This document shows, in pieces, positions 3,543 through 19,377 of a stretch of DNA of 31,155 nt. This DNA comes from Myxococcota bacterium (GTDB taxonomy: Bacteria > Myxococcota > XYA12-FULL-58-9 > JABJBS01). Position numbers and translations under genes: made by a program. The notes below the pieces were generated by a model. The model had not been told where the DNA came from and did no database searches. It saw nothing but the letters and a program-made list of their open reading frames with translations. How positions within the stretch are numbered: the stretch's first letter is position 1; every line of letters starts with the position of its first letter. The DNA lies in the NCBI GenBank assembly GCA_036339465.1, contig JAYZAY010000050.1, positions 1 through 31,155 on the forward strand, in the 5' to 3' direction.

Positions 3543-4964
3543 TTAACCGGTCAACCGACCCACTTTCTCTAAGCCTGGTCGGGCTCCTAATCCTAAAAGC
3601 ATCGAAAGTAATAAAAGTGCCCCCACACTAACAGCCGTGCGAGCCGCCAAAGCCTTGGTGGGTTCTTCTTTGAATTCAAAACTCGGCAATTGTCGTAAAT
3701 CTTTAGTTCTCATTTCGAGCCCCGACTGCACCCGCTCGGAAAAGAAAGCCCGAAACTCCCTGTGAAAGCTATCGGCTTGTTTTTCAAAGCGCGCATGTCG
3801 GATAGAACCCGAACCCGCTACATCCTCCAAAGATAGCTGGACCAAAATAGCGGGGGAGAGAAAGCGAAGGGCACTCAGTATGGTCTGCCGCTCTTGTAAT
3901 TTTTCGTTAAGCTCTTTGAGCACCGGCTCCGAACGCTTGACCAGTTCATCCTGCACCCGGATGATTTTTCTGGCGCCGTCGCCTGCCTTAGGATCCACGT
4001 CGTGACGACCCTCCAGGTTGTTGAGTTCTTTCTGAATATCCCGAGCCGCCTCTCGAGCCTCATGCAGAAGCTCAATACGAGAGGGTGGGGGATAGAAAGT
4101 ATCCACACCAACATTCACCAAACCAGGCACCACCACCACCACCACCAGCCAGATCCCCACAAGAACCAAGGCATTTTTAGCCGAACTTCCGCCGCGAGAA
4201 TTCACCAAAATAGCCGTGGCAAACCAAAAGGTGGCCCACCCCACCAACACACCGGCGTAAAGAAGGAAATGGAAACTCTCTTCGCGTTGAAAAAAGCTTC
4301 CCCCGGCGATTAGCAGGCCCAGAAAAGCAAAAACCAAAGTTAGGCCCGAAAGGGCCGTCAGACGCGCCAGGGCTTTTCCTAGAACGAATGCTCCTTGGGA
4401 TACGGGTTGGGAGAGAAGCATGGCCAGGGTGCCCCGTTCCCTTTCGCCGCTGAGTAGCTCGTAGGAGAGGGCGATGATCACCAAGGGAAAGAGCACCACA
4501 AAGAGAAAGGCGGGATCAAATGCGCCAGTCTGGAGGCGGGTGGGCCCGGCCATAGGGGTTTCGGTTTCCCGTTCTAAGATGAGGTTTAGAGCACTGGTGA
4601 CCCGCACCGCCTGGGGGCGAAAATCCCGTTGGCCCATGGCCACCGAAGCCAGAGGAGCAGGGGGAAGAACCGCCAGGCGTGCCGCCCCCTCTTGGCCCAT
4701 CCACACGGCATTGCGGGGATCTCTCGCACTCAAGGGCTTTTGCGTGGTTTCGAGTTTTGCCAGTTTCTGTGCCAGTGTTGTTAGGCGCTGGACTTCCTCA
4801 GTTTCGGAGCGCTCCAATCCTTTGGCCATTTGCCGGGCATGATTTCCCCCCGCAAGCGATGCGAGCACGAGAAAACCGGCAAAGAGAGCCAGCACGCCCA
4901 TGGCAGCGCGGTCCTGTTTTAGGATCCGCCACTCTAATCTGAAAACGGTTTTCCAGGTGCTCAT
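3543..4964 (-). CDS. ABC transporter permease subunit with DUF3526-type C-terminus
   Basis: GAFDPAFLFVVLFPLVIIALSYELLSGERERGTL motif and multiple TM helices. ATG 4964 overlaps the stop of the upstream permease (ATGA). Confidence 0.88.
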   Translation of the reverse strand: MSTWKTVFRLEWRILKQDRAAMGVLALFAGFLVLASLAGGNHARQMAKGLERSETEEVQRLTTLAQKLAKLETTQKPLSARDPRNAVWMGQEGAARLAVLPPAPLASVAMGQRDFRPQAVRVTSALNLILERETETPMAGPTRLQTGAFDPAFLFVVLFPLVIIALSYELLSGERERGTLAMLLSQPVSQGAFVLGKALARLTALSGLTLVFAFLGLLIAGGSFFQREESFHFLLYAGVLVGWATFWFATAILVNSRGGSSAKNALVLVGIWLVVVVVVPGLVNVGVDTFYPPPSRIELLHEAREAARDIQKELNNLEGRHDVDPKAGDGARKIIRVQDELVKRSEPVLKELNEKLQERQTILSALRFLSPAILVQLSLEDVAGSGSIRHARFEKQADSFHREFRAFFSERVQSGLEMRTKDLRQLPSFEFKEEPTKALAARTAVSVGALLLLSMLLGLGARPGLEKVGRLTG

Positions 4965-6388
4965 ACCACCCTCACTTTCTGGGCCGACCGCAGGGCCAAG
5001 AGAATCGCCGCTACCAACCACAGTAAAAGTATCCCTAGGCTCAGCGCATGGGTTTGTAGGGCGAAGCCCACTGTGGGGGCCTCGTAGGTGAAGGGGGGGA
5101 TTTTCTTCCAAAGTTCGGGACCGGCCCGGTATTCCCAACCCTCATAGCCTGCGTTGTCTGCGAAGTCCTTATTCAGTTGGGTCACGAGTTTCTTGCGCCA
5201 CGCTTCTGCCTGATCGGTGAAGTGGCGATGGTGGGAAAAATCGGTGCCGGAGAGTCCGGCAGAGAGGGTGCGCATGGCCAGAAAAGGGGAGATGACCCCG
5301 ATGAAAGCCACCACTTTTTCCTGAGCTTCGATATCGTCATCGAGGGCTTGCATGTGGTGGTCGTAGATCATGTCTTCCCATCTTGCTTCGGCTTGGAGTT
5401 CCAGCCCGTTTATCTGCGAGCCCTGCACCAACAAACCTGTATTCGAGAGATTTTCTGCCGCCATAAGATCGGTGAGGATGGCTTCCACGGCCGTGTCCCG
5501 TTCCATTTTGCCGCCGATTCCATTTTCGAGACTCTGGGTGATATCGCGAGCAAGGGCCCCTTGGCTGGGCAGGGGTTGAGCGGCGGAGGCGACCTCGGTG
5601 GCCACTCGGGGCGCCACCAAACAAAAGAGGCCCCAGACTCCAATCATCGCCACGAGAGCACCACGGGAGGAGCTGTTGATGGCAGACACATAAAGGGTGA
5701 GGCCACCGAAAATGGCGAAGTAGATACCGTAGGTGAAGACCAAAAGCATGAGTCGGAAGATGGTAGCACTGTCGCCCCCGCTTAAAGCCCAGAGGACGGC
5801 AATGAGGATGAGGGCAGCGGGGATTAAAAGGACAGCGATAACAACGCCGAGGGCACCCGCCTTGCCCCAAAAGAGGGTGCGACGATCCGCCCCGGTGCTA
5901 AGAAGTTGCCGGAGCGTACCGCTCTCTCGCTCGCGACTCCAAAGTCCGTGTCCCAAAGCGATAATGAGCAAGGGGACCAGCTGAAGGAGCACACTGGCCA
6001 CAGAGAAGGAACCCATACGCCGAAGACTGGTGCTGTCTTGAGCAGAGGAGTGAGCCGCCAGATTGCGTTTGTGGGCTTCGATTTTCACCGAGCGACCCAA
6101 ATAGGCCGAGATCCCAGGATCGATGGCGGTAACGGCGCTGATGGGGGCGAAGAGGTGGGTACCGTAGTGGGCGGCGACGTGTGGGTTTTTATCCCCTTGG
6201 TTTTCCCACTGCTTGGCCGATCGCTTTCGGGCGTGCTCGCGGGCATCTAGGGCTTCGAGGGTTTGTTGGGCACCAAAAGCGAGGGCGGCGAGGGCGAGCA
6301 CCACCACGATACCCCCCAAAAGACGAAGGCGACCGTCTCGGATGATTTCTTTGATTTCCTTATTTGCGACCCAGCGAACCAAGGACAT
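4961..6388 (-). CDS. ABC transporter permease subunit with DUF3526-type C-terminus
   Basis: KNPHVAAHYG, SRERESGTLRQLLS, LSGTDFSHHRHF motifs. ATG 6388 has a GGAG RBS. Confidence 0.88.
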   Translation of the reverse strand: MSLVRWVANKEIKEIIRDGRLRLLGGIVVVLALAALAFGAQQTLEALDAREHARKRSAKQWENQGDKNPHVAAHYGTHLFAPISAVTAIDPGISAYLGRSVKIEAHKRNLAAHSSAQDSTSLRRMGSFSVASVLLQLVPLLIIALGHGLWSRERESGTLRQLLSTGADRRTLFWGKAGALGVVIAVLLIPAALILIAVLWALSGGDSATIFRLMLLVFTYGIYFAIFGGLTLYVSAINSSSRGALVAMIGVWGLFCLVAPRVATEVASAAQPLPSQGALARDITQSLENGIGGKMERDTAVEAILTDLMAAENLSNTGLLVQGSQINGLELQAEARWEDMIYDHHMQALDDDIEAQEKVVAFIGVISPFLAMRTLSAGLSGTDFSHHRHFTDQAEAWRKKLVTQLNKDFADNAGYEGWEYRAGPELWKKIPPFTYEAPTVGFALQTHALSLGILLLWLVAAILLALRSAQKVRVV

Positions 6389-6401
6389 GGCCTCTCCTCT
6401 C

Positions 6402-7109
6402 CTAGTCGTGCATGTGTTCGAGGTAAATACGCTCGAGGTCGTTGTGGGAGAGGTCTTGGGCAACCAGTTCCGCCACCAGCTCTCCGTGTTTCATAATGCC
6501 GATTCGAGAGGCAATTTCCCGAGACCGAAAAAGATCGTGGGTGGCCATGAGAACGGCCACGCCCGAATCGCTGAGGGAGCAGACCAACTGGGAAAATTCG
6601 TTGGAGGCTTTGGGATCCAAACCGGAGGTGGGTTCGTCTAGGAGGAGGAGTTCGGCTTTGCGGGCCATGGCCATGGCGATACCCACCTTTTGGCGCATGC
6701 CCTTGGAGTAGGTGCCCACGGGTCGGTCCGTAGCATCGGTGGGAAGTCCTGCCCGATCGAGGGTGGTGCGGAGCTCTTCGGAGCTGGTATCGGTGATACC
6801 CGCGAGAGTCGTGAAGTATTCGAGGTTTTCCATGCCGCTCAAATTGGGGTAGAGCATGACGTTTTCGGGGATATAGGCCAAGAACTTCTTAGTTTCCAAA
6901 ACATTTTCGGCCACTTCGAGTCCTTTGATTTTGGCGCTACCGGAAGTGGGTTCGATGAAGCCTAAGAAGAGTTGGATAGTGGTGGTTTTACCCGCGCCAT
7001 TGGCCCCGAGTAGGCAAAATACTTCCCCCTGCCTCACGTGGAGATCGAGCCCTTTGAGAGCAGGGTGGTTGCCGTAGTGTTTGACAAGGCCTTGGGCCTG
7101 CAGAACCAT
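6402..7109 (-). CDS. ABC transporter ATP-binding protein
   Basis: Walker A GANGAGKTT, signature YSKGMRQK, Walker B LLLLDEPTSGLDP, H-loop ATHD. Confidence 0.96.
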   Translation of the reverse strand: MVLQAQGLVKHYGNHPALKGLDLHVRQGEVFCLLGANGAGKTTTIQLFLGFIEPTSGSAKIKGLEVAENVLETKKFLAYIPENVMLYPNLSGMENLEYFTTLAGITDTSSEELRTTLDRAGLPTDATDRPVGTYSKGMRQKVGIAMAMARKAELLLLDEPTSGLDPKASNEFSQLVCSLSDSGVAVLMATHDLFRSREIASRIGIMKHGELVAELVAQDLSHNDLERIYLEHMHD

Positions 7110-9171: not shown

Positions 9172-10143
9172 CTATTTTTCCGCCAATACCACCGCCCTAG
9201 TCGGAGCGGGATAACCCTCTATGGTTTTATTCAAATCATTGGGATCCACAAAATCCGACAACGACTGAAAAGTCATCCATTCCGTCGCTCTTTGCTCATC
9301 CAGACTGGTTTGATTCACATCCACAACCCGAGCATTCTTGAATCCGGCCCGCTCCACCCAATGGAGAAGGGTGGGCACCGACGGGAGAAAAAAGACATTT
9401 CTCATTTGGGCATAGCGGTCAGTGGGCACAAAGGCATGGTGTAAATCGCCTTTGGTGATCAAGGTTTCAAGCACCAATTCGCCTCCGGGACACAAGGCAT
9501 CCTTCAGCTCCTGTAAGTGCTCAAAGGGCGACCGACGATGATAAAGCACCCCCATGGAAAACACCGTATCAAACGCCCCTGTATTCCGGGGAAAGACCTC
9601 CATCACCATGGGCAAATAGTCGACCGGCGCTTCAGGATAAAAATGCTTCACCATCCGAAATTGAAACCAGAAGAGTTGACTCGGGTCCAATCCCACCACC
9701 CGGCGAGCCCCATCGGCCAACATACGCCAGCAGTGATAACCACTTCCACATCCTACATCGAGAATCGTGCGTCCCTCTAAAGCCTTCAGATGAGGCGAAA
9801 CGCGCTCCCACTTCCAATCGGACCGCCACTCGGTGTCGATATGAATGCCAAAGAAATCAAAGGGCCCCTTCCGCCAAGGATGCAAACCCTTGAGCAAGGC
9901 CAAAAGCTTGTCGCCGTCGCCCGGGGACAATTCGCCCTTTTTGCCAATTTGTAGGGTAGGGCGATTGAAATCGAGACTCACCTCCACCGCCACGGGAACC
10001 TGGGCCAAAAGCGCCTCCCATTCCGCCCTTCGACCGTGGAGATTATCCCCACCCAAACGCCCCAGTTCTCGCTCCAAATCCTTCAATCCGGATTTGAGCC
10101 TTGAATTGGCGGCGTATTCTAGGAAGTCGGCGAAGAGAGTCAT
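9172..10143 (-). CDS. cmoB: tRNA 5-methoxyuridine(34)/uridine 5-oxyacetic acid(34) synthase CmoB
   Basis: LHPWRKGPF, IDTEWRSDWKW, LDVGCGSGYH, FSMGVLYHRRSP, RYAQMRNV, TIEGYPAP. Lies directly downstream of cmoA. Confidence 0.96.
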   Translation of the reverse strand: MTLFADFLEYAANSRLKSGLKDLERELGRLGGDNLHGRRAEWEALLAQVPVAVEVSLDFNRPTLQIGKKGELSPGDGDKLLALLKGLHPWRKGPFDFFGIHIDTEWRSDWKWERVSPHLKALEGRTILDVGCGSGYHCWRMLADGARRVVGLDPSQLFWFQFRMVKHFYPEAPVDYLPMVMEVFPRNTGAFDTVFSMGVLYHRRSPFEHLQELKDALCPGGELVLETLITKGDLHHAFVPTDRYAQMRNVFFLPSVPTLLHWVERAGFKNARVVDVNQTSLDEQRATEWMTFQSLSDFVDPNDLNKTIEGYPAPTRAVVLAEK

Positions 10144-10916
10144 TTCTCGGCCACAAAGGACACAAAATTATAACATTGAAACCAAACCGTGGATTGGGAG
10201 AACCCCGCTTGACGGAGACGGTCATGATGGGTGTCCACAGTATCGAGGATCATCACATTTTCCAGGGCTTTGCGCTTCTGGCTGATCTCCATATCGGAAT
10301 AGCCATTGGCCCGCTTGAAGTCGTGGTGCCAATCCACCAGACGTGCCTGTTGGGCCTTGGAGTCGAATTTACTCTTTTCGGAGAGTAGAAGCACCCCGCC
10401 CACAACCAAAGCCTCTTGGATCCGCTGAAGGAGGCGGAATCGCTCCACCGGCTCAAGGAATTGAAGAGTGTAATTCAACACCACCACCGAGGCATTGGAA
10501 AGCTCGGTTTCCCGCACATCCTCACAGCGAACGTCAATATCCAGAGACGCCGAACTCTTGCTCAAATTCTCGCGAAATTTCTCCACCATAGCAGGGGAAT
10601 TGTCCACAGCCACAATTTCTGGTGTGTTGGCGCCCATATGATGCTGGATTGTCCAAGAGACCGCTCCCAAGGAACAACCGAGATCGTAAATACGGGTGCC
10701 TGGCTGGGCAAAGCGGCCAACAAGATTGCCCAGGAGTTCGGTTGCCAGGTAGTAGCCAGGCACAGAGCGGCCAATCATATCCGGAAAAACCTTCACCACT
10801 TCCCGATTAAATTCGAAGGGCCGGACATCCTTCGGGTCTGCGTAAATAGCGTCTTTTTGGACCGGTTTTCCACCGGTCACCGCGCCCCATAAATTCTCGT
10901 GTGATTCCAATGACAT
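10140..10916 (-). CDS. cmoA: Carboxy-S-adenosyl-L-methionine synthase CmoA
   Basis: FPDMIGRSVPGY, YDLGCSLGA, VDNSPAM, LNYTLQF, DFKRANGYS, QKRKALENV. ATGA overlap with cmoB. Confidence 0.96.
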   Translation of the reverse strand: MSLESHENLWGAVTGGKPVQKDAIYADPKDVRPFEFNREVVKVFPDMIGRSVPGYYLATELLGNLVGRFAQPGTRIYDLGCSLGAVSWTIQHHMGANTPEIVAVDNSPAMVEKFRENLSKSSASLDIDVRCEDVRETELSNASVVVLNYTLQFLEPVERFRLLQRIQEALVVGGVLLLSEKSKFDSKAQQARLVDWHHDFKRANGYSDMEISQKRKALENVMILDTVDTHHDRLRQAGFSQSTVWFQCYNFVSFVAEK

Positions 10917-11164
10917 GGTCGTCTCCGTTTCCGCGCGTATATCGCAACATCCCGTCTATTCAAGGGAAAAATGGGGCTGGGCGAGGATGGTGGATTTTAC
11001 CGCCGGGGTTGGCACCCCCGTTCAAGCCACAGCCCCGGTGATCGGGCGGTCGGAATTATCGCACCCATTTTGTTCACCTCCTTTACGTTCTTCCTAGAAT
11101 AAATGCCCTTAAAGCAAACTCCGAGAGACTTGTTGTCTTGGGAAATTAGACATATGGCGGTTTT

Positions 11165-11827
11165 ATGAAAGCGAATCATTGGGTAGTGGTGGGATTTTTG
11201 TTCATGGGCGGTCAGATCGCCTGCGCCCCAACCTATAAGCAAATAGTCATCTCCATGGTCGATTTAGATTGCGCCAGTTGCGGGGACGATTTGGCACATC
11301 AGTTGAACCGCGGCGAAGCCACCAAGGGCGCCCAATTTAATCTCAATTCGGCAGAAATCACGGTAAGCTACAACCCCCAACATACGACACCCGAAAAATT
11401 GGTGAGCACCCTTCAAAGCGAGGACTACAAGCTCACCCTCGGCCCCGGGAAAGGGTCATACACGCCCATGGCCAAATTCGCCAAGAACGCCGACGTCAAA
11501 ACCATCTCCAAAAATGGTGAGGCCGTGTGGTTGGAAAAACATTGGGTGCGAGGAAAAATCACCGTTTTTGATTTCTACGCCGACTGGTGTGGACCCTGTC
11601 GGAAAATCAACGATTTCCTTAAAGTGCAAGCCGAGACCCGTAACGATCTGGCCATCCGCAAAATCAATATTGTCGACTGGGATAGCCCCGCCGCTCAGAA
11701 GCATCTGGCCCACGTGGCAGGACTACCTTTTGTGGTCGTGTATGGCCCCCTAGGGACGAAGCTTGGGCACGTTGAAGGATTGAAGTTTGAGCAGATTGAA
11801 AAACTCATCGCGCCGAGGACAAAATAA
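11165..11827 (+). CDS. Exported heavy-metal-associated (HMA) domain plus thioredoxin domain fusion protein
   Basis: N-terminal hydrophobic segment with lipobox-like IAC. HMA-type LDCASC followed by the beta-alpha pattern ITVSYNP...LVSTL. C-terminal Trx domain DFYADWCGPC...GLPFV. Confidence 0.85.
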   Translation: MKANHWVVVGFLFMGGQIACAPTYKQIVISMVDLDCASCGDDLAHQLNRGEATKGAQFNLNSAEITVSYNPQHTTPEKLVSTLQSEDYKLTLGPGKGSYTPMAKFAKNADVKTISKNGEAVWLEKHWVRGKITVFDFYADWCGPCRKINDFLKVQAETRNDLAIRKINIVDWDSPAAQKHLAHVAGLPFVVVYGPLGTKLGHVEGLKFEQIEKLIAPRTK

Positions 11828-12906
11828 TGAAATTGAAACGTGTGGGAATTGCAGTATGGATCACCTTTTCGATGTTTTTGACCTGGACACCCCAGTTTAG
11901 TTTTGCCGCCACTTGAACCGCTTGAACAAACCCAAGTCTCCCGGGTGGAGGCTCCGACTTACTAAGCAATCTTGAAACCGAGATTTCCTACCTCCTTAGC
12001 GTGAGGCTATCGTCTAGGTATATCCACACTTCCCACAAAGTCGACCCCCGTCAATGGGAGCCGGGTATTGCTCAGGACCAGCAGGCCTACGACCACGTGC
12101 TGGATTTTCTCTTTTTCGATTTGGAGCTAAGCGGCACCTATTTTTTGAATCGATGGTTGGGGCTGAAACTCTACGTGCCTCTCAGGATGGTGGGCGCAGA
12201 AGCACAATTTAACAATTTCGATGGCCTGGAAATCGCGGGCTTCAAGAGCATTCACCATCGCCGAGAAACCATTATGGGAATCGCCGACGTGGGAACCGAC
12301 GCTGTATTTCGTTTTCGCCCCTTTCAATCCAAAACACTGGCCTGGACAATGCGTGTGGAGACAGGGTTGCGATGGCCAACTGGAAAGGTCGAGCCCAACC
12401 CCGATCAATTGGGGAGTGAGGGGAAAGAACATCAGCATATCTTTTTCGGTCGCGGCAGTATTGTGCCAATTTTGGGGATGAGTCATGCGCTACGGCTGCC
12501 CGATTTCACCATGGATCTGTGGGGGCGACTCATTTATCCTTTCTACGCCCATGAGCTGGGCTATAGAGCCAGTCGCACCTATTCTGGCGGCCTCGGACTC
12601 AGTTCCAAATTCGGACTCTCACAATGGCAATTTGGGGTTTTCGGAGGTGTCTCTAGGGAAATGCCCGCCAAGTGGGAAGATACCCCGGCGCGAAACAGTG
12701 GCCGAACGCAAGTAAACTTGAATCTTCGTTTTCAATATTATTCTGGACCTAAGTGGGCCCATGGGCTAACCATGCAAATTCCGATCTATGGAAAAGTCGA
12801 AGGCGGACAGATGGCGGCAGGATGGATGCTTTCCCTAGAATCCAATTGGTATGGTCTTGAAGAAGGAACCATAGAGTCCCATGATACTTCCCATACAACG
12901 AATTAG
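11827..12906 (+). CDS. Putative selenoprotein: signal peptide, UxxU motif (two in-frame UGA) and His-rich outer-membrane beta-barrel-like domain, 359 aa
   Basis: ATG 11827 overlaps the upstream stop (TAATG), is preceded by GAGG and is in frame with ORF 12001..12906. Translation is MKLKRVGIAVWITFSMFLTWTPQFSFAAT-U-TA-U-TNPSLPGGGSDLLSNLE..., with TGA at 11914-16 and 11923-25 and no other stops. A SECIS-like hairpin follows. The downstream region has amphipathic beta-strands plus SIHHRRET, GIADVG, WPTG and EHQHIFFGRG. Confidence 0.75.
11935..11953 (+). promoter_or_regulatory. Candidate bacterial SECIS hairpin
   Basis: AGUCUCC-(CGGGU)-GGAGGCU forms a 7-bp stem with one G-U pair and a G/U-containing apical loop. 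The loop starts 16 nt after the second UGA and 25 nt after the first. Confidence 0.6.
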
Positions 12907-13390
12907 TCGCGAACTTTATAGCCCCTATGGTGATCTCATTGCAGGAAAAGATGGCAGTGGGGGAGGGGAGGTTGCCAATCAAGGCACCGCAGAAGCATTT
13001 CACAATCTCGCTTCCTTTAAAAACCTCAGACCTGACTCTGCCAGCCCAAGCATTTCTGTTTTTCGAGTTCAGCCTTTGTCCCAGACTAACTTGAGGTTAA
13101 AGCTTCTGGAAAAACATCCATATTCTACGCAATTTTTTATTCCCATGAATGCGGTGGCCTATTTGGCCATTGTGGCCCTTGGGGATGAGCATCCGGAAGT
13201 GGATACGCTCAAGGTTTTTAAGGTGCCAGGAAACCAAGCCATTGGTTACCATCCGGGCGTATGGCACTACCCCATGGTGGCCCTAGAACGGGTGACCGAT
13301 TTTGTGACCATGACCTACCAAATCGGCAATTCCGAAGACTGCGTGATTCAGGAGTTCAACAAGGATATGGAATTGGAAATTAGCATGTAG
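12881..13390 (+). CDS. Ureidoglycolate lyase (AllA)-like cupin protein
   Basis: YSPYGDLI, ANQGTA, LLEKHPYSTQFFIPM, YHPGVWHYP. The start overlaps the end of the upstream gene by 26 bp. Confidence 0.85.
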   Translation: MILPIQRISRELYSPYGDLIAGKDGSGGGEVANQGTAEAFHNLASFKNLRPDSASPSISVFRVQPLSQTNLRLKLLEKHPYSTQFFIPMNAVAYLAIVALGDEHPEVDTLKVFKVPGNQAIGYHPGVWHYPMVALERVTDFVTMTYQIGNSEDCVIQEFNKDMELEISM

Positions 13391-13914: not shown

Positions 13915-14604
13915 TTAGAATGGGGCTTGTTCTCCAGCAAGCTGGAAAAAGAGCGTGCCATCATAAAATTTGGCGAGGGTTTCACGGGTTATTACCTGGG
14001 TTTCGTAGCCATACACGGAACGATTTTCACCGGCAATTTCCAGAAGTAGACCAAACTCAAATCGGGAGGCCGTACTGCTTCCGGAATCTTCGAAGTTGCG
14101 CATGTAAAAAGTTTCAAACTCTTGTGCAGAAAGGCAGCCATCTTGGTTGCTATCATAATTCTGAAAAAGCTGCTCAAACTTTTGGGCGTTAAATTGTCCG
14201 CGGTTATCATAGATATCGGTGTCGCTACCGTGTTTTCCGGCGGCGATATTTTTTACTCGGATGGTGAGCGGGGAATACCAAGGTGCGCCAGTGATGCGTC
14301 CTAATCCGGTGTTAATCGCCGTCGCTAAGACCCAAGAACGAAGCCTCCCGAAACCGAGAGCCATCAACCCATCTTGGGTTTCGGAAACGGTAATTTGGCC
14401 ATCGCCATCCCTATCAAAAAACATGGCGTGCTTCTGAAGAGCCGACGGCCCATCGGGGTTACGAACTGCAGAGGATGGAGCGGATACCTCAAAGGTATCG
14501 ACCGCGTCGTTGGTGGGAGCTGGGGTAGAATTGGGAACATTCGCGGGGCCAGTAGGGGACCAAACCGCGGGATTTGTGGTAGAGGGGGTCGTTGAAACGG
14601 GCAT
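13915..14604 (-). CDS. Caleosin/peroxygenase family protein (EF-hand)
   Basis: LQKHAMFFDRDGDGQITVSET (conserved His plus EF-hand), KHGSDTDIYDNRGQF, EFGLL, YDGTLFFQL match the caleosin family pattern. Confidence 0.88.
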   Translation of the reverse strand: MPVSTTPSTTNPAVWSPTGPANVPNSTPAPTNDAVDTFEVSAPSSAVRNPDGPSALQKHAMFFDRDGDGQITVSETQDGLMALGFGRLRSWVLATAINTGLGRITGAPWYSPLTIRVKNIAAGKHGSDTDIYDNRGQFNAQKFEQLFQNYDSNQDGCLSAQEFETFYMRNFEDSGSSTASRFEFGLLLEIAGENRSVYGYETQVITRETLAKFYDGTLFFQLAGEQAPF

Positions 14605-16289: not shown

Positions 16290-18041
16290 CTAAAGCTGTC
16301 CCACCAAACGGAGGTTCATGGCTTTGGAGTCGGGGGAATTTATTTGGCTATAATCCAATCGCAATTCCAGATGATTCTCGAAGAAGACATAACCAATGAT
16401 TCCGGAAACCTCCTGGATGGTGCTTGCTTGCTCTGCGTGTAGAGAGAGTCTCGCTTTGGCAAAATAGTTGCGGTAGCGATAACCCGTTTGGAAATATCCC
16501 CCTATCAGACCTTTGGGCACATCCCCGGTTTCTTGTAGGTGACCACTTTGACCCAATTTAGCCTCTTGCCAGCCATGGTAGATGAATTCTCCTTTAAAAC
16601 TCAATAAATGTCGCTCTCGCCGACGAACACGATACTTCCAGCGTAGGTCCGTAACAATAAAGTATTGCTGAACCTTCCCAAAATCTGGCATTTCAAAGGC
16701 CAGATTGATTCCCAATTCGGGAAGATCGCTGCGACGAAGTGAAATCCGCCCCCCGAAAGCCACACCATCCTTTTTCTTTATTTGACGATTTAAGTCCTTC
16801 TCAAGGGGATTCAAAGTGAGCTCTCGTCCCCGGGTAATCCATCCGCAGTAGTAAAGCCGCCCTCGAAACAACCGTCCGTAGATGTCTAAGCCATCGGAGA
16901 CGAAGTTCATATCCAAAGCGCGGGTGGCAAGTGGATCCAGAGCGAATTTCCGACTCATTTCCGTGTTTCGCCAAACAAGACCTAAGGGAACGACAAAACG
17001 GCCGGCAACCAGTGCCAATCGAGCTGTTTGCTGCTTTCGTAGGGGCTGCATGGCGACCCATTCGATAAGTAGCTTACGAAGTTGAGGTTTCGCACCAGTG
17101 CCTTCGTATCTCGCCGTAAAGGCCGCTTGAACATCCTCGTAGATAGGAGCGCGCAGGCCAATCAGTGCCTTGCCGAGACTTAAAGAACCATTGGGGTTGT
17201 CTACGGAATGAATCTGAGCTTCGAGACTAAGTCTGAGGGTCAACACAAAGGGGTCTTGTAAGAGTGGGTTTAGGTTTTCATCGGCAGTGGTGGGGCTACT
17301 TTGATGTCTTTTACGTTTCCGTTTTTTGGCTTTCCGTTTCTTAACTTTTCCCGATTTTCGCTTCGCCTCGTCGTCTCGAGTGGGGAGGGGAGCTATGGAG
17401 CGTCGTTGCTTTTCCTTGACTGCAGCCAGACATTGGGCTTGCGCCAGTCGTTTTTTCTTTGCCGCGGCTTCGGCAACCCTCTTTTTCTCTTCCCGTACTT
17501 TGGCGATTTGTTCTTGCTTCATCCGCGCCACGGCTTCGGCTTGATCGATGACCCATTGAACCAGTTCTTGCCCGGTTTTTCGTCGTAATTGTCGGCCCTT
17601 TTGACTGACTTGGTGCTCGACCAATATGCCACCTTCTTGGATTTCTCGGAGTTGGGCATGGAGGGTCATGGTTCGGTTTTTGAATTTCATTTCCACCAAA
17701 ACGACATAATCAGCCCCCAACTTTTTACCCATAGGGGCATAGGCGCTGGGAAGGTGGAGTTCTCGCCGTTTGTAGCCAGCATCGAGCGACACTTCGATAT
17801 AACGCTCCAATCGGATAACCTTTTGTCGCTGTCCCAACTCACGAATAAAATTGACGCCCAATTGCCTCCGAATGGAAGCGAGGCCTTTCTTGTTGACGGG
17901 CATGACCAGGTAGGTGTTTTGCTTGGATGCAGATTTACCATGGGCAGCACTGGTGAAACCGAAGCTCACCCCCAGAACCAGGAATAAGAGCATTCTCCCA
18001 AATCCAGAATCCAAAGCTGTCATTCGATGATCGACCTTCAT
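16290..18041 (-). CDS. Hypothetical exported protein with a Lys/Arg-rich linker and a porin-like C-terminal beta-barrel
   Basis: Signal-peptide-like MLLFLVLGVSFGFTSAAHG, GADYVVLVEM, a coiled/basic linker, then amphipathic beta-strands with AGRFVVPLG (porin-like GxFxxPxG). Start is uncertain. Confidence 0.6.
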   Translation of the reverse strand: MKVDHRMTALDSGFGRMLLFLVLGVSFGFTSAAHGKSASKQNTYLVMPVNKKGLASIRRQLGVNFIRELGQRQKVIRLERYIEVSLDAGYKRRELHLPSAYAPMGKKLGADYVVLVEMKFKNRTMTLHAQLREIQEGGILVEHQVSQKGRQLRRKTGQELVQWVIDQAEAVARMKQEQIAKVREEKKRVAEAAAKKKRLAQAQCLAAVKEKQRRSIAPLPTRDDEAKRKSGKVKKRKAKKRKRKRHQSSPTTADENLNPLLQDPFVLTLRLSLEAQIHSVDNPNGSLSLGKALIGLRAPIYEDVQAAFTARYEGTGAKPQLRKLLIEWVAMQPLRKQQTARLALVAGRFVVPLGLVWRNTEMSRKFALDPLATRALDMNFVSDGLDIYGRLFRGRLYYCGWITRGRELTLNPLEKDLNRQIKKKDGVAFGGRISLRRSDLPELGINLAFEMPDFGKVQQYFIVTDLRWKYRVRRRERHLLSFKGEFIYHGWQEAKLGQSGHLQETGDVPKGLIGGYFQTGYRYRNYFAKARLSLHAEQASTIQEVSGIIGYVFFENHLELRLDYSQINSPDSKAMNLRLVGQL

Positions 18042-18314
18042 CTTATCCCATTTGGCGCAATGAACGACCAGTACTTCATCATGACACTTATCATGGGGCA
18101 TGGAAAGTGACGACCCCATCAAGGAAAAGGCCCCACAGCCTAGAGATTTCCTGGACCTTTTTGCAGCACCATTCTTTGGCAGACGAGATGCGCTAGCTCG
18201 TGTGTGGTGATTGATTTTCGGTGATTGAATCAACCACCAGTCGCAGGCTAAGAGCTTGCCGCGTTAGAGCCCACCCCATGCATTCAAGGAAAAGGATGAA
18301 GCCAGCCACGATTA

Positions 18315-18655: not shown

Positions 18656-18868
18656 CAAGTAGCAGAGCCTCAAAAAAGATGAGCTTCTCTCCAGAAAAAC
18701 ACCCGCCATATTCCTCGTGCTGCCAAACGGGACGTGGCCTTGCGCGGCCATTTTTCAGTGTCGTTTTATGGGAAAATCTTATCGGTGATGTGGAGAAAAC
18801 AGGGATTGTTGTATCTTATCTTACCTTGCTTTGCCACCAACATAATCAGCGGGGTGCCCGACAAACCG

Positions 18869-19377
18869 CTAGAAATACGCAGGGCCCAATGGCTTTGGAA
18901 AGTTTAGGGAGATGGAGAGTAGTGGGGCGTTATGTTTCGAAGCTCGAGCAATCGAGAAGCGATTCCGCTGCACTGTCGCTGGCAGCTTCGAAACCGTTCC
19001 AGGAAAATTTGACAGAGTGACAGAAGCGGCAGTCAGATAGTATTTCCCTTTTTCTCCTTTCGCATGCCAAGGATCCCATCCGCCGAGGGCTGAGCATCCA
19101 ACCACTCAGTTTCGGTAAATTTTCCGTAGAATGTAGCGGGCACCGTACCCTGATAGGTTGTGCTAAGCGAGAAGGTGGCTCGGCAATGGATTTTGATATT
19201 GGCACCGGGCTTTACCCGCGCACTGAGATATTCAACATTGATGACTTATGCATCTACAACAATCTCATCTATCGCTTCTAGATCTTCCTCAGACATTGGG
19301 GCCGGAATGGCAAAACCGGCGGCTCTGGTACCTAGAATCATACCGATAATAATGCGTTTGACGGTTGACTTTAACAT
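18869..19377 (-). pseudogene. Decayed gene for a secreted protein (in-frame TAA, probable later frameshift)
   Basis: GGAG RBS and ATG 19377 give MLKSTVKRIIIGMILGTRAAGFAIPAPMSEEDLEAIDEIVVDA*(TAA 19248-19246)VINVEYLSARV..., with the frame still open after the stop. The 3' end is uncertain. Confidence 0.5.

Follow-up and report, generated by a model that had tools for sequence, protein, structure and literature searches.

The contig JAYZAY010000050.1 of a Myxococcota bacterium (assembly GCA_036339465.1), analysed here over its positions 1 to 31,155 (the window), contains at 11165-13390 three genes which raise two questions: whether the second, interrupted by two in-frame TGA codons, encodes a protein with two selenocysteines (Sec), and what such a protein might do beside the thioredoxin encoded by the first. 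Gene 1 (11165-11827, + strand) encodes a lipoprotein of 220 amino acids (aa) with an HMA and a thioredoxin domain, as indicated by its open reading frame (ORF), Pfam matches and an AlphaFold2 model. Gene 2 (11827-12906, +) encodes a predicted outer-membrane barrel of 359 aa, a di-selenoprotein when translated with both TGA codons as Sec in agreement with its relatives, and gene 3 (12881-13390, +) a ureidoglycolate-lyase-like (AllA-like) cupin matching PF04115. All three are on the + strand and run in the same direction, and their coordinates confirm the overlapping junctions described in the initial annotation: the TAA stop of gene 1 (11825-11827) and the ATG start of gene 2 (11827-11829) have one A in common in TAATG, and genes 2 and 3 share 26 bp. 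From these junctions we infer that the genes are co-transcribed. A promoter and terminator scan gave a promoter-like site at 11073-11100 and no terminator within the operon, but it was uninformative, the number of sites being no higher than in shuffled sequences.

Selenocysteine in gene 2

Comparison with its relatives strongly supports gene 2 as a genuine selenoprotein. The UxxU motif read there by the initial annotation is now backed by its recurrence in 38 of 42 related loci, by homologues with Cys and by a conserved RNA hairpin. The frame 11827-12906 is open only when both in-frame TGA codons are read through, and the resulting product begins MKLKRVGIAVWITFSMFLTWTPQFSFA|AT-U-TA-U-TNPSLPGGG. 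Its first 27 residues (11827-11907, +) form a signal peptide, predicted from the sequence to end ..FSFA|AT, and are followed by the U-T-A-U motif (11914-11925, +), whose TGA codons at 11914-11916 and 11923-11925 align with the UxxU and CxxC motifs of relatives. Under translation table 11 only a GTG-started ORF is left (12001-12906), which has no signal peptide and lacks the start of strand 1.

The gene 2 family was collected by a HMMER profile scan over 1.84 billion representative sequences. At E ≤ 1e-3 it gave 456 representatives (50% identity), and 110 at E ≤ 1e-30; word-indexed homologue searches returned only 2 and 4 proteins, none with an informative name. The best 150 relatives are mostly of about 290 aa and start just past the motif, for example with "MNPSLPGGGS" (P0002 being one such protein), because gene callers stop at TGA. 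Nine of 151 relatives are full length. In these the signal peptide leads into CxxC-x-NP-x-LP, with the two Cys placed opposite the two TGA codons of the window in the alignment. In addition, one genome per species was scanned with an 8-sequence alignment, which gave 42 loci (numbered with L; proteins are numbered with P). The frame upstream of the barrel carries UxxU in 38 of them and CxxC in 3, and is cut off by the contig end in the remaining one; in the same 38 of 42 the flanks are conserved as well (signal peptide, UxxU, x-NP-x-LP), a recurrence far beyond chance. The leaders of the relatives are hydrophobic with an A-x-A-like end, and in all cases the motif lies 2-3 residues past a signal-peptidase-like site, which gives a mature protein beginning x-x-U-x-x-U. 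Two marks of a selenoprotein gene, in-frame UGA with conserved flanks and Cys at the Sec position of homologues, are present in gene 2.

TGA otherwise behaves as a normal stop. The CmoA gene of the window ends in TGA with an end-to-end match to TIGR00740, and in 24 of the 27 thioredoxin genes upstream of the barrel in relatives TGA is the first in-frame stop and falls at the end of the alignment. Genome-wide reassignment of TGA (code 4 or 25) was ruled out by the end of CmoA. Neither tRNA genes (including tRNA-Sec) nor selA, selB or selD were found in the 31-kb window. SelA and SelB are encoded directly downstream of the barrel in the relative L032, where SelA (PF03841, E 8e-107) and SelB follow a barrel-thioredoxin fusion on the same strand (L032:7772-11199).

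Behind the TGA codons there is a SECIS-like (selenocysteine insertion sequence) hairpin, AGUCUCC-CGGGU-GGAGGCU (11935-11953, +), recognised by comparative pairing and codon constraint. Its core CCUCC-CGGGU-GGAGG, located twelve nt past the second TGA, is common to the 39 genes with UxxU. Counted from the second UGA the loop (CGGGU) begins after 19 nt, and counted from the first after 28 nt; both distances fall within the 16-37 nt of the bacterial SECIS spacing rule. The element is thus a downstream stem-loop with G in its apical loop, as a bacterial SECIS should be. The 7-pair structure is paired in 82.1% of 273 cells, compared with 39.9-56.0% when the partner is slid, and this value was reached by 2 of 500 shuffles. 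Two-sided changes occur in two of the seven pairs, 29-45 (AU 19, GC 5, GU 1, UA 1) and 33-41 (CG 38, UA 1). Such covariation is modest, most pairs being invariant, and this counts against the hairpin; the RNA evidence is therefore mainly conservation and codon bias. The Leu codon in the hairpin is CTC in 38 of 39 genes (background 0.38 elsewhere in the same genes), the Pro codon CCG in 34 of 34 (background 0.42) and the second Gly codon GGA in 34 of 39 (background 0.13). Folding of 27 nt gave a mean of -9.6 kcal/mol in the 39 UxxU genes versus -0.6, -6.2 and -5.0 in the three Cys forms, which keep NP-x-LP and have lost GGG and the hairpin. Codon constraint and this loss indicate that "LPGGG" is largely an RNA requirement. 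No Rfam family, including bacterial SECIS, matched at gathering score across the window, with only chance-level matches around the TGA codons. The minimum-energy fold of the whole region, in which the UGA region is paired otherwise, was set aside for the comparative structure. The best explanation of these data would be that both UGA codons are decoded with a single downstream SECIS hairpin.

The barrel and its thioredoxin partner

The AlphaFold2 model of gene 2, built with 134 sequences, has a predicted local distance difference test score (pLDDT) of 85.3 and a predicted template modelling score (pTM) of 0.80. Residues 53-344 (11983-12858, +; pLDDT >90) form a beta-barrel of about 12 strands, while residues 1-46 are disordered and unplaced (pLDDT <50). 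Foldseek comparison with the PDB placed first FapF (5o65/5o67, E 4e-12, target-normalised TM-score (TMt) 0.67-0.73) and next the COG4313 channel of Pseudomonas putida (4rl8, E 1.4e-9). Model and structure search thus agree with the barrel proposed in the initial annotation. At E ≤ 1 the family PF13557 is touched by 14 of the 134 family members (best E 3e-8); the window protein itself has no Pfam family at this threshold, and no Pfam or NCBIfam model matched it. From its modelled structure, gene 2 is filed as a probable fold-level relative of the FapF/COG4313 barrels and not as a member of PF13557. The last residue of many relatives is F or W, as is usual for outer-membrane proteins.

Conserved residues of gene 2 include H70, H90, H143, H144, H202 and H204, several Glu and Asp, R145, R293 and W283. 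The His clusters mentioned in the initial annotation are found among them as the pair H143-H144 (SIHHR, loop 2; 12253-12258, +) and as H202-Q203-H204 (EHQHxFFG, loop 3; 12430-12438, +), in which the four His are each at least 90% conserved in the 134 sequences. If the usual topology is assumed, with both termini and the short turns periplasmic, the model would place nearly all the conserved residues in long loops and strand ends opposite the termini. A distant barrel subfamily carries H-E-x-x-C-P-[DE]-[IL]-G-P-x-C in the first long loop (P0082, P0090, P0096, P0100, P0104, P0108, P0109, P0122-P0125, P0127, P0129, P0132, P0139, P0147 and P0151), where the branch of the window has H-x-V-x-x-x-Q-x-E-P-G; this loop motif may provide a second site for metal or redox chemistry.

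Gene 1 had been annotated as an exported protein with two CxxC sites, LDCASC of HMA type and WCGPC of thioredoxin type. Both motifs and both domains were found, and the export signal can be refined to that of a lipoprotein. The signal peptide (11165-11224, +) ends at the lipobox Cys20 (..GGQIAC); of the 23 aligned orthologues 19 have the N-terminal region, and in these the lipobox Cys stands in the same column. The HMA domain comprises residues 25-92 (11237-11440, +), with the CxxC residues C36 (11270-11272) and C39 (11279-11281), and the thioredoxin domain residues 111-215 (11495-11809, +), with C142 (11588-11590) and C145 (11597-11599). In the AlphaFold2 model (pLDDT 91.9, pTM 0.83) the first has the beta-alpha-beta-beta-alpha-beta order and resembles the ATP7B metal-binding domain 6a71 (TMt 0.88, root-mean-square deviation 1.4 Å), and the second resembles canonical thioredoxins. 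The match to PF00085 is above cut-off (E 1.1e-9, 38.6 bits, cut-off 23.5), and W141, C142, C145 and P188 are invariant in a 24-sequence alignment, so that the WCxPC motif and the cis-Pro loop of a thioredoxin are both there. The match to PF00403 (E 1e-4, 23.0 bits) is just under the cut-off of 24.8, orthologues matching clearly with up to 44.7 bits; together with this sub-cut-off profile match, the ferredoxin-like fold and the CxxC in the first loop identify the HMA domain. This CxxC is retained in all 18 HMA-bearing orthologues aligned. The domain also matches NF041115 weakly (E 3.5e-3).

The initial annotation had joined the two proteins in one system, a proposal that would have fallen had their genes been unlinked in other genomes. 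Linkage was scored by tblastn with the gene 1 domains over the 42 loci, four of which end at a contig edge. Of the 38 assessable loci, 33 show linkage of a gene 1-type thioredoxin with the barrel, the thioredoxin lying directly upstream in 27 and being fused to the barrel C-terminus in 6. HMA was detected in 20 of the 27 upstream partners, and a Sec-type HMA in L037 and L042 brings this to 22; in L041 a Cys/His-rich segment replaces it, and in L011, L013, L016 and L017 the thioredoxin stands alone. In L037 (5220-5894) and L042 (5192-5890) the partner, like the barrel, is a selenoprotein, with Sec at the first metal-binding position of its HMA (LT-U-QSCG and LD-U-QSCG). Among 152 proteins (the window barrel and 151 relatives) 28 are barrel-thioredoxin fusions. 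These share the gene 1 signature GKxTVxDFWAxWCxPC and are often joined via His/Asp-rich linkers. When 300 neighbouring ORFs were compared all against all, the thioredoxin partner was the only recurrent neighbour.

The closest relatives come from marine Myxococcota-type metagenome-assembled genomes and have about 40% identity or less. The family is spread through Myxococcota and is also present in some Acidobacteriota and Bdellovibrionota genomes. The module of a cultured isolate, Paraliomyxa miuraensis SMH-27-4 (L013, NZ_JAOVZF010000151.1), consists of a thioredoxin lipoprotein without HMA and a UAGU barrel, and offers an experimental system.

Possible functions of the module

Genes 1 and 2 probably constitute a two-part soft-metal relay or redox module of the cell envelope, in which metal handling and electron flow are deduced from the domains. 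The mature gene 2 protein would expose to the periplasm a flexible N-terminal arm of about 25 residues starting x-x-Sec-x-x-Sec, and the long loops at the other end of the barrel would present the six conserved His and acidic residues. A path for Cu(I) or Hg(II), across the outer membrane or at it, would then be formed by the di-selenolate arm together with the barrel and its His lining. Gene 1 would be the periplasmic lipoprotein in which a soft-metal HMA domain (CxxC) is combined with a reducing thioredoxin (WCGPC): the HMA (or CupA-like) domain would exchange metal with the arm, and the thioredoxin would re-reduce the Se-Se bond (and the CxxC) formed in the oxidising periplasm, as TlpA likewise does for copper-site cysteines.

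The metal role is strengthened by the swapping of metal-binding modules beside the thioredoxin, which include HMA with CxxC, HMA with UxxC, a CupA-like Cu(I) cupredoxin and the Cys/His-rich segment. Seven relatives have the order barrel-thioredoxin-cupredoxin (P0081, P0084, P0093, P0102, P0121, P0148 and P0152), and the cupredoxin of P0084 matches CupA with E 1.8e-16 and keeps the C...CxMxM pattern for Cu(I). Further clues come from neighbouring genes. MerR-like regulators are encoded in L006, L024 and L034, all under equivalog cut-off, with MerR the best match in two of the three and ZntR and CueR just behind. L006 also has a MerTP-like protein (81 bits, cut-off 95) and a ZntA/CadA-like ATPase; MerC-like proteins are found in L006, L008 and L024, a multicopper oxidase in L033 and a MopE-like protein in L019. 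Altogether, MerR-, MerTP- and MerC-like genes are present in 4 of the 42 loci and always below equivalog cut-offs. A DF-family (seleno)protein, NF049942, is encoded at L006:2687-3421 (-; 104 bits, cut-off 70) and also at L008:1480-2223 (+), with its domains fused to thioredoxin-like or MerC-like parts, and these two loci have the appearance of heavy-metal islands in which selenoprotein families are abundant. The clues converge on soft metals and not on one metal. As to direction, the resistance-type neighbours would favour detoxification or export, and reductive import would likewise be compatible with His ligands on the outer side and Se ligands on the inner.

A bolder form of this proposal, which we consider rather unlikely, makes the selenol/diselenide switch of the arm a means of energy coupling for the outer membrane, where there is neither ATP nor proton-motive force. 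The module would in this case be a thioredoxin-powered diselenide metal transporter, with the reducing power of the tethered thioredoxin driving cycles of metal capture and release. For import, Cu(II) at the outer His cluster would be reduced to Cu(I) and passed to the HMA or CupA-like chaperone; for export, bound Cu(I) or Hg(II) would be released outward by oxidation.

Several observations weigh against the soft-metal relay. First of all, the conserved His cluster lies at the barrel end opposite the UxxU arm, so that metal could pass directly between them only with the arm inside the lumen. Metal-related neighbours were found in only about 6 of the 42 loci, are absent from the window and are split between Hg/Zn/Cd and Cu types. 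In addition, 5 of the 38 assessable loci (L005, L008, L014, L027 and L040) have no gene 1-type thioredoxin, and among these L014 belongs to the loci with the UxxU arm most like that of the window; upstream of the barrel, L008 has a different thioredoxin-like gene and MerC. Finally, an electron source of the DsbD/CcdA type was not found beside any locus examined.

Alternatively, the module may be a redox enzyme and no metal relay, in which case the UxxU arm would be the catalytic centre of a reductase or peroxidase of the envelope, the thioredoxin its electron donor and the HMA an accessory. Prokaryotic selenoproteins with UxxC, CxxU or UxxU are mostly thought to be redox proteins (PMC13188914). 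In agreement with this, the thioredoxin is the invariant partner and has an active site of the canonical reducing CGPC/CxPC type, and the metal domain is dispensable, as the four loci with thioredoxin alone indicate. However, a metal module is present in most partners (HMA in 22 of 27 upstream, CupA-like in seven fusions), the His/Asp-rich linkers and the six conserved His are better explained by metal coordination, and the module contains no known peroxidase or reductase fold. We therefore take a redox enzyme as a minor possibility, and as equally tentative its candidate substrates, e.g., peroxides, oxidised envelope proteins, or selenite and tellurite entering via the barrel.

Less probable still is a channel function, with hydrophobic molecules or polypeptides passing through the barrel and the UxxU/CxxC arm serving as a redox-gated plug operated by the thioredoxin. 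The top fold matches, FapF and the P. putida COG4313 channel, and the contacts of 14 of the 134 members with PF13557 point in this direction, and FapF and the COG4313 channels use an N-terminal segment as a plug. However, the window protein gives no Pfam match even at E ≤ 1, those channels are not characterised by a conserved His/acidic cluster or by recurrent Cu/Hg-type domains, and neither amyloid (fap) nor aromatic-degradation genes were seen in the neighbourhoods examined.

It is very improbable that all three genes cooperate, with the cupin acting for instance as a metal-dependent enzyme fed by the relay. Gene 3 matches PF04115 above cut-off (E 8.3e-39, 133 bits) and stays under the cut-off of all eight NCBIfam equivalogs compared (best 109 versus 160), so that its sequence assigns it to the PF04115 family and AllA activity is putative. 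Its 26-bp overlap with gene 2 suggests co-transcription in this genome, and cupins are often metalloenzymes. However, in none of the 42 related loci did tblastn detect an AllA-like gene up to a distance of about 6 kb from the barrel, and the thioredoxin partner is the sole recurrent neighbour. Judged from this distribution gene 3 is a passenger, that is an unrelated neighbour of the module, which the initial annotation had already suspected. Finally, the reading of gene 2 as no selenoprotein at all (a pseudogene, a leader ORF followed by a barrel from the GTG at 12001, or a gene with reassigned TGA) would fit the public gene calls, which cut the family likewise with most of the 150 representatives starting after the motif, and the lack of Sec machinery genes and Rfam matches in the window, but it is close to refuted by a frame that continues with conserved sequence through both TGA codons in 38 of the 42 loci and has Cys instead in 3, by a table 11 ORF devoid of signal peptide and strand 1 start, by the codon-constrained hairpin gone in the Cys forms and by the TGA end of CmoA.

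Neighbouring genes and known systems

Upstream of gene 1, on the opposite strand, CmoA and CmoB (tRNA cmo5U synthesis) form a pair at 9172-10916 (-) with the stop/start overlap ATGA. Downstream of gene 3 there are a caleosin-like EF-hand protein (13915-14604, -; PF05042, E 1e-37) and NhaA. Caleosins are best known from plants and fungi, and one looks unusual in a bacterial context. Farther away, an ORF of 647 aa (16290-18233, -) gave no Pfam match and only a chance-level NCBIfam match, and 3543-7109 (-) contains two ABC-2-type permeases with DUF3526 and an ABC ATPase; the permease ORFs overlap by 178 nt as listed, probably from the first TTG being taken as start. A second selenoprotein candidate at 18679-19281, the sole other frame of the window extended when TGA is read as Sec, was rejected because it looks non-coding.

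Gene 2 shares with the COG4313/Phenol_MetA_deg (PF13557) channels and FapF (4RL8, 5O65, 5O67) the 12-stranded outer-membrane barrel, and differs from them in the UxxU arm, the six-His cluster and the thioredoxin partner or fusion. The di-chalcogen motif, presumed to bind soft metals, recalls NF041115 ("UxxU metal-binding (seleno)protein") and the MerT/CopZ fusions; in NF041115, however, UxxU lies within the HMA fold, whereas in gene 2 it occupies the free N-terminal end of a membrane barrel, and the partner HMA of the window carries Cys and not Sec.

Periplasmic thioredoxin-like reductases of the TlpA (acting on ScoI/CoxB) and ResA/CcmG types keep copper-site cysteines reduced. We use them as a working analogy for gene 1, as an extracytoplasmic membrane-anchored thioredoxin with CxPC beside a metal-binding CxxC client. 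In gene 1, by contrast, the thioredoxin and a metal-binding domain of its own belong to one polypeptide, the client would be a diselenide carried by an outer-membrane barrel, and DsbD/CcdA were not found nearby. The N-terminal cupredoxin of CupA/CopA from Streptococcus pneumoniae (2MRY, 4F2E, 4F2F) resembles the C-terminal domain of the cupredoxin relatives only, the equivalent role in the window being taken by HMA. As for the mer operon, the periplasmic HMA of gene 1 is comparable to MerP, and mer-like genes stand beside the module in L006, L008, L024 and L034; in contrast to that operon, no MerA was seen in the loci and the window has no mer genes. To our knowledge, classical mer operons have no outer-membrane component.

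The UxxU motif of SelL can form a diselenide, but SelL is a thioredoxin-fold protein, while here the motif is on an unstructured N-terminal arm. The Global Ocean Sampling paper mentions SelL as a Prx-like protein (PMC2398784). None of the 119 prokaryotic selenoprotein families in the table of a 2026 review matches gene 2; the nearest entries are NF041115 and two predicted outer-membrane barrel selenoproteins, the MtrB/PioB-family protein GSU2204 and the FCYXU-type TonB-dependent receptor (PMC13188914). Unlike gene 2, these two have one Sec each, belong to other barrel families with other motifs and have no thioredoxin partner in that table. The full-text literature searched on such selenoproteins also contained nothing on the gene 2 family, and the source names of ten family clusters are "hypothetical protein" or absent. 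The gene 2 family is thus apparently undescribed.

Selenoproteins and envelope metal trafficking are each already known, and the combination of a di-Sec outer-membrane barrel with a dedicated metal-binding thioredoxin lipoprotein was not found in the literature searched. As the family is mostly cut at TGA and named "hypothetical protein", its correct annotation would add a double-Sec family. It would also provide a tractable case of two UGA codons 9 nt apart sharing one SECIS, of Sec preferred over Cys (38 loci versus 3) in an oxidising compartment, and of the crossing or handling of soft metals at the outer membrane.

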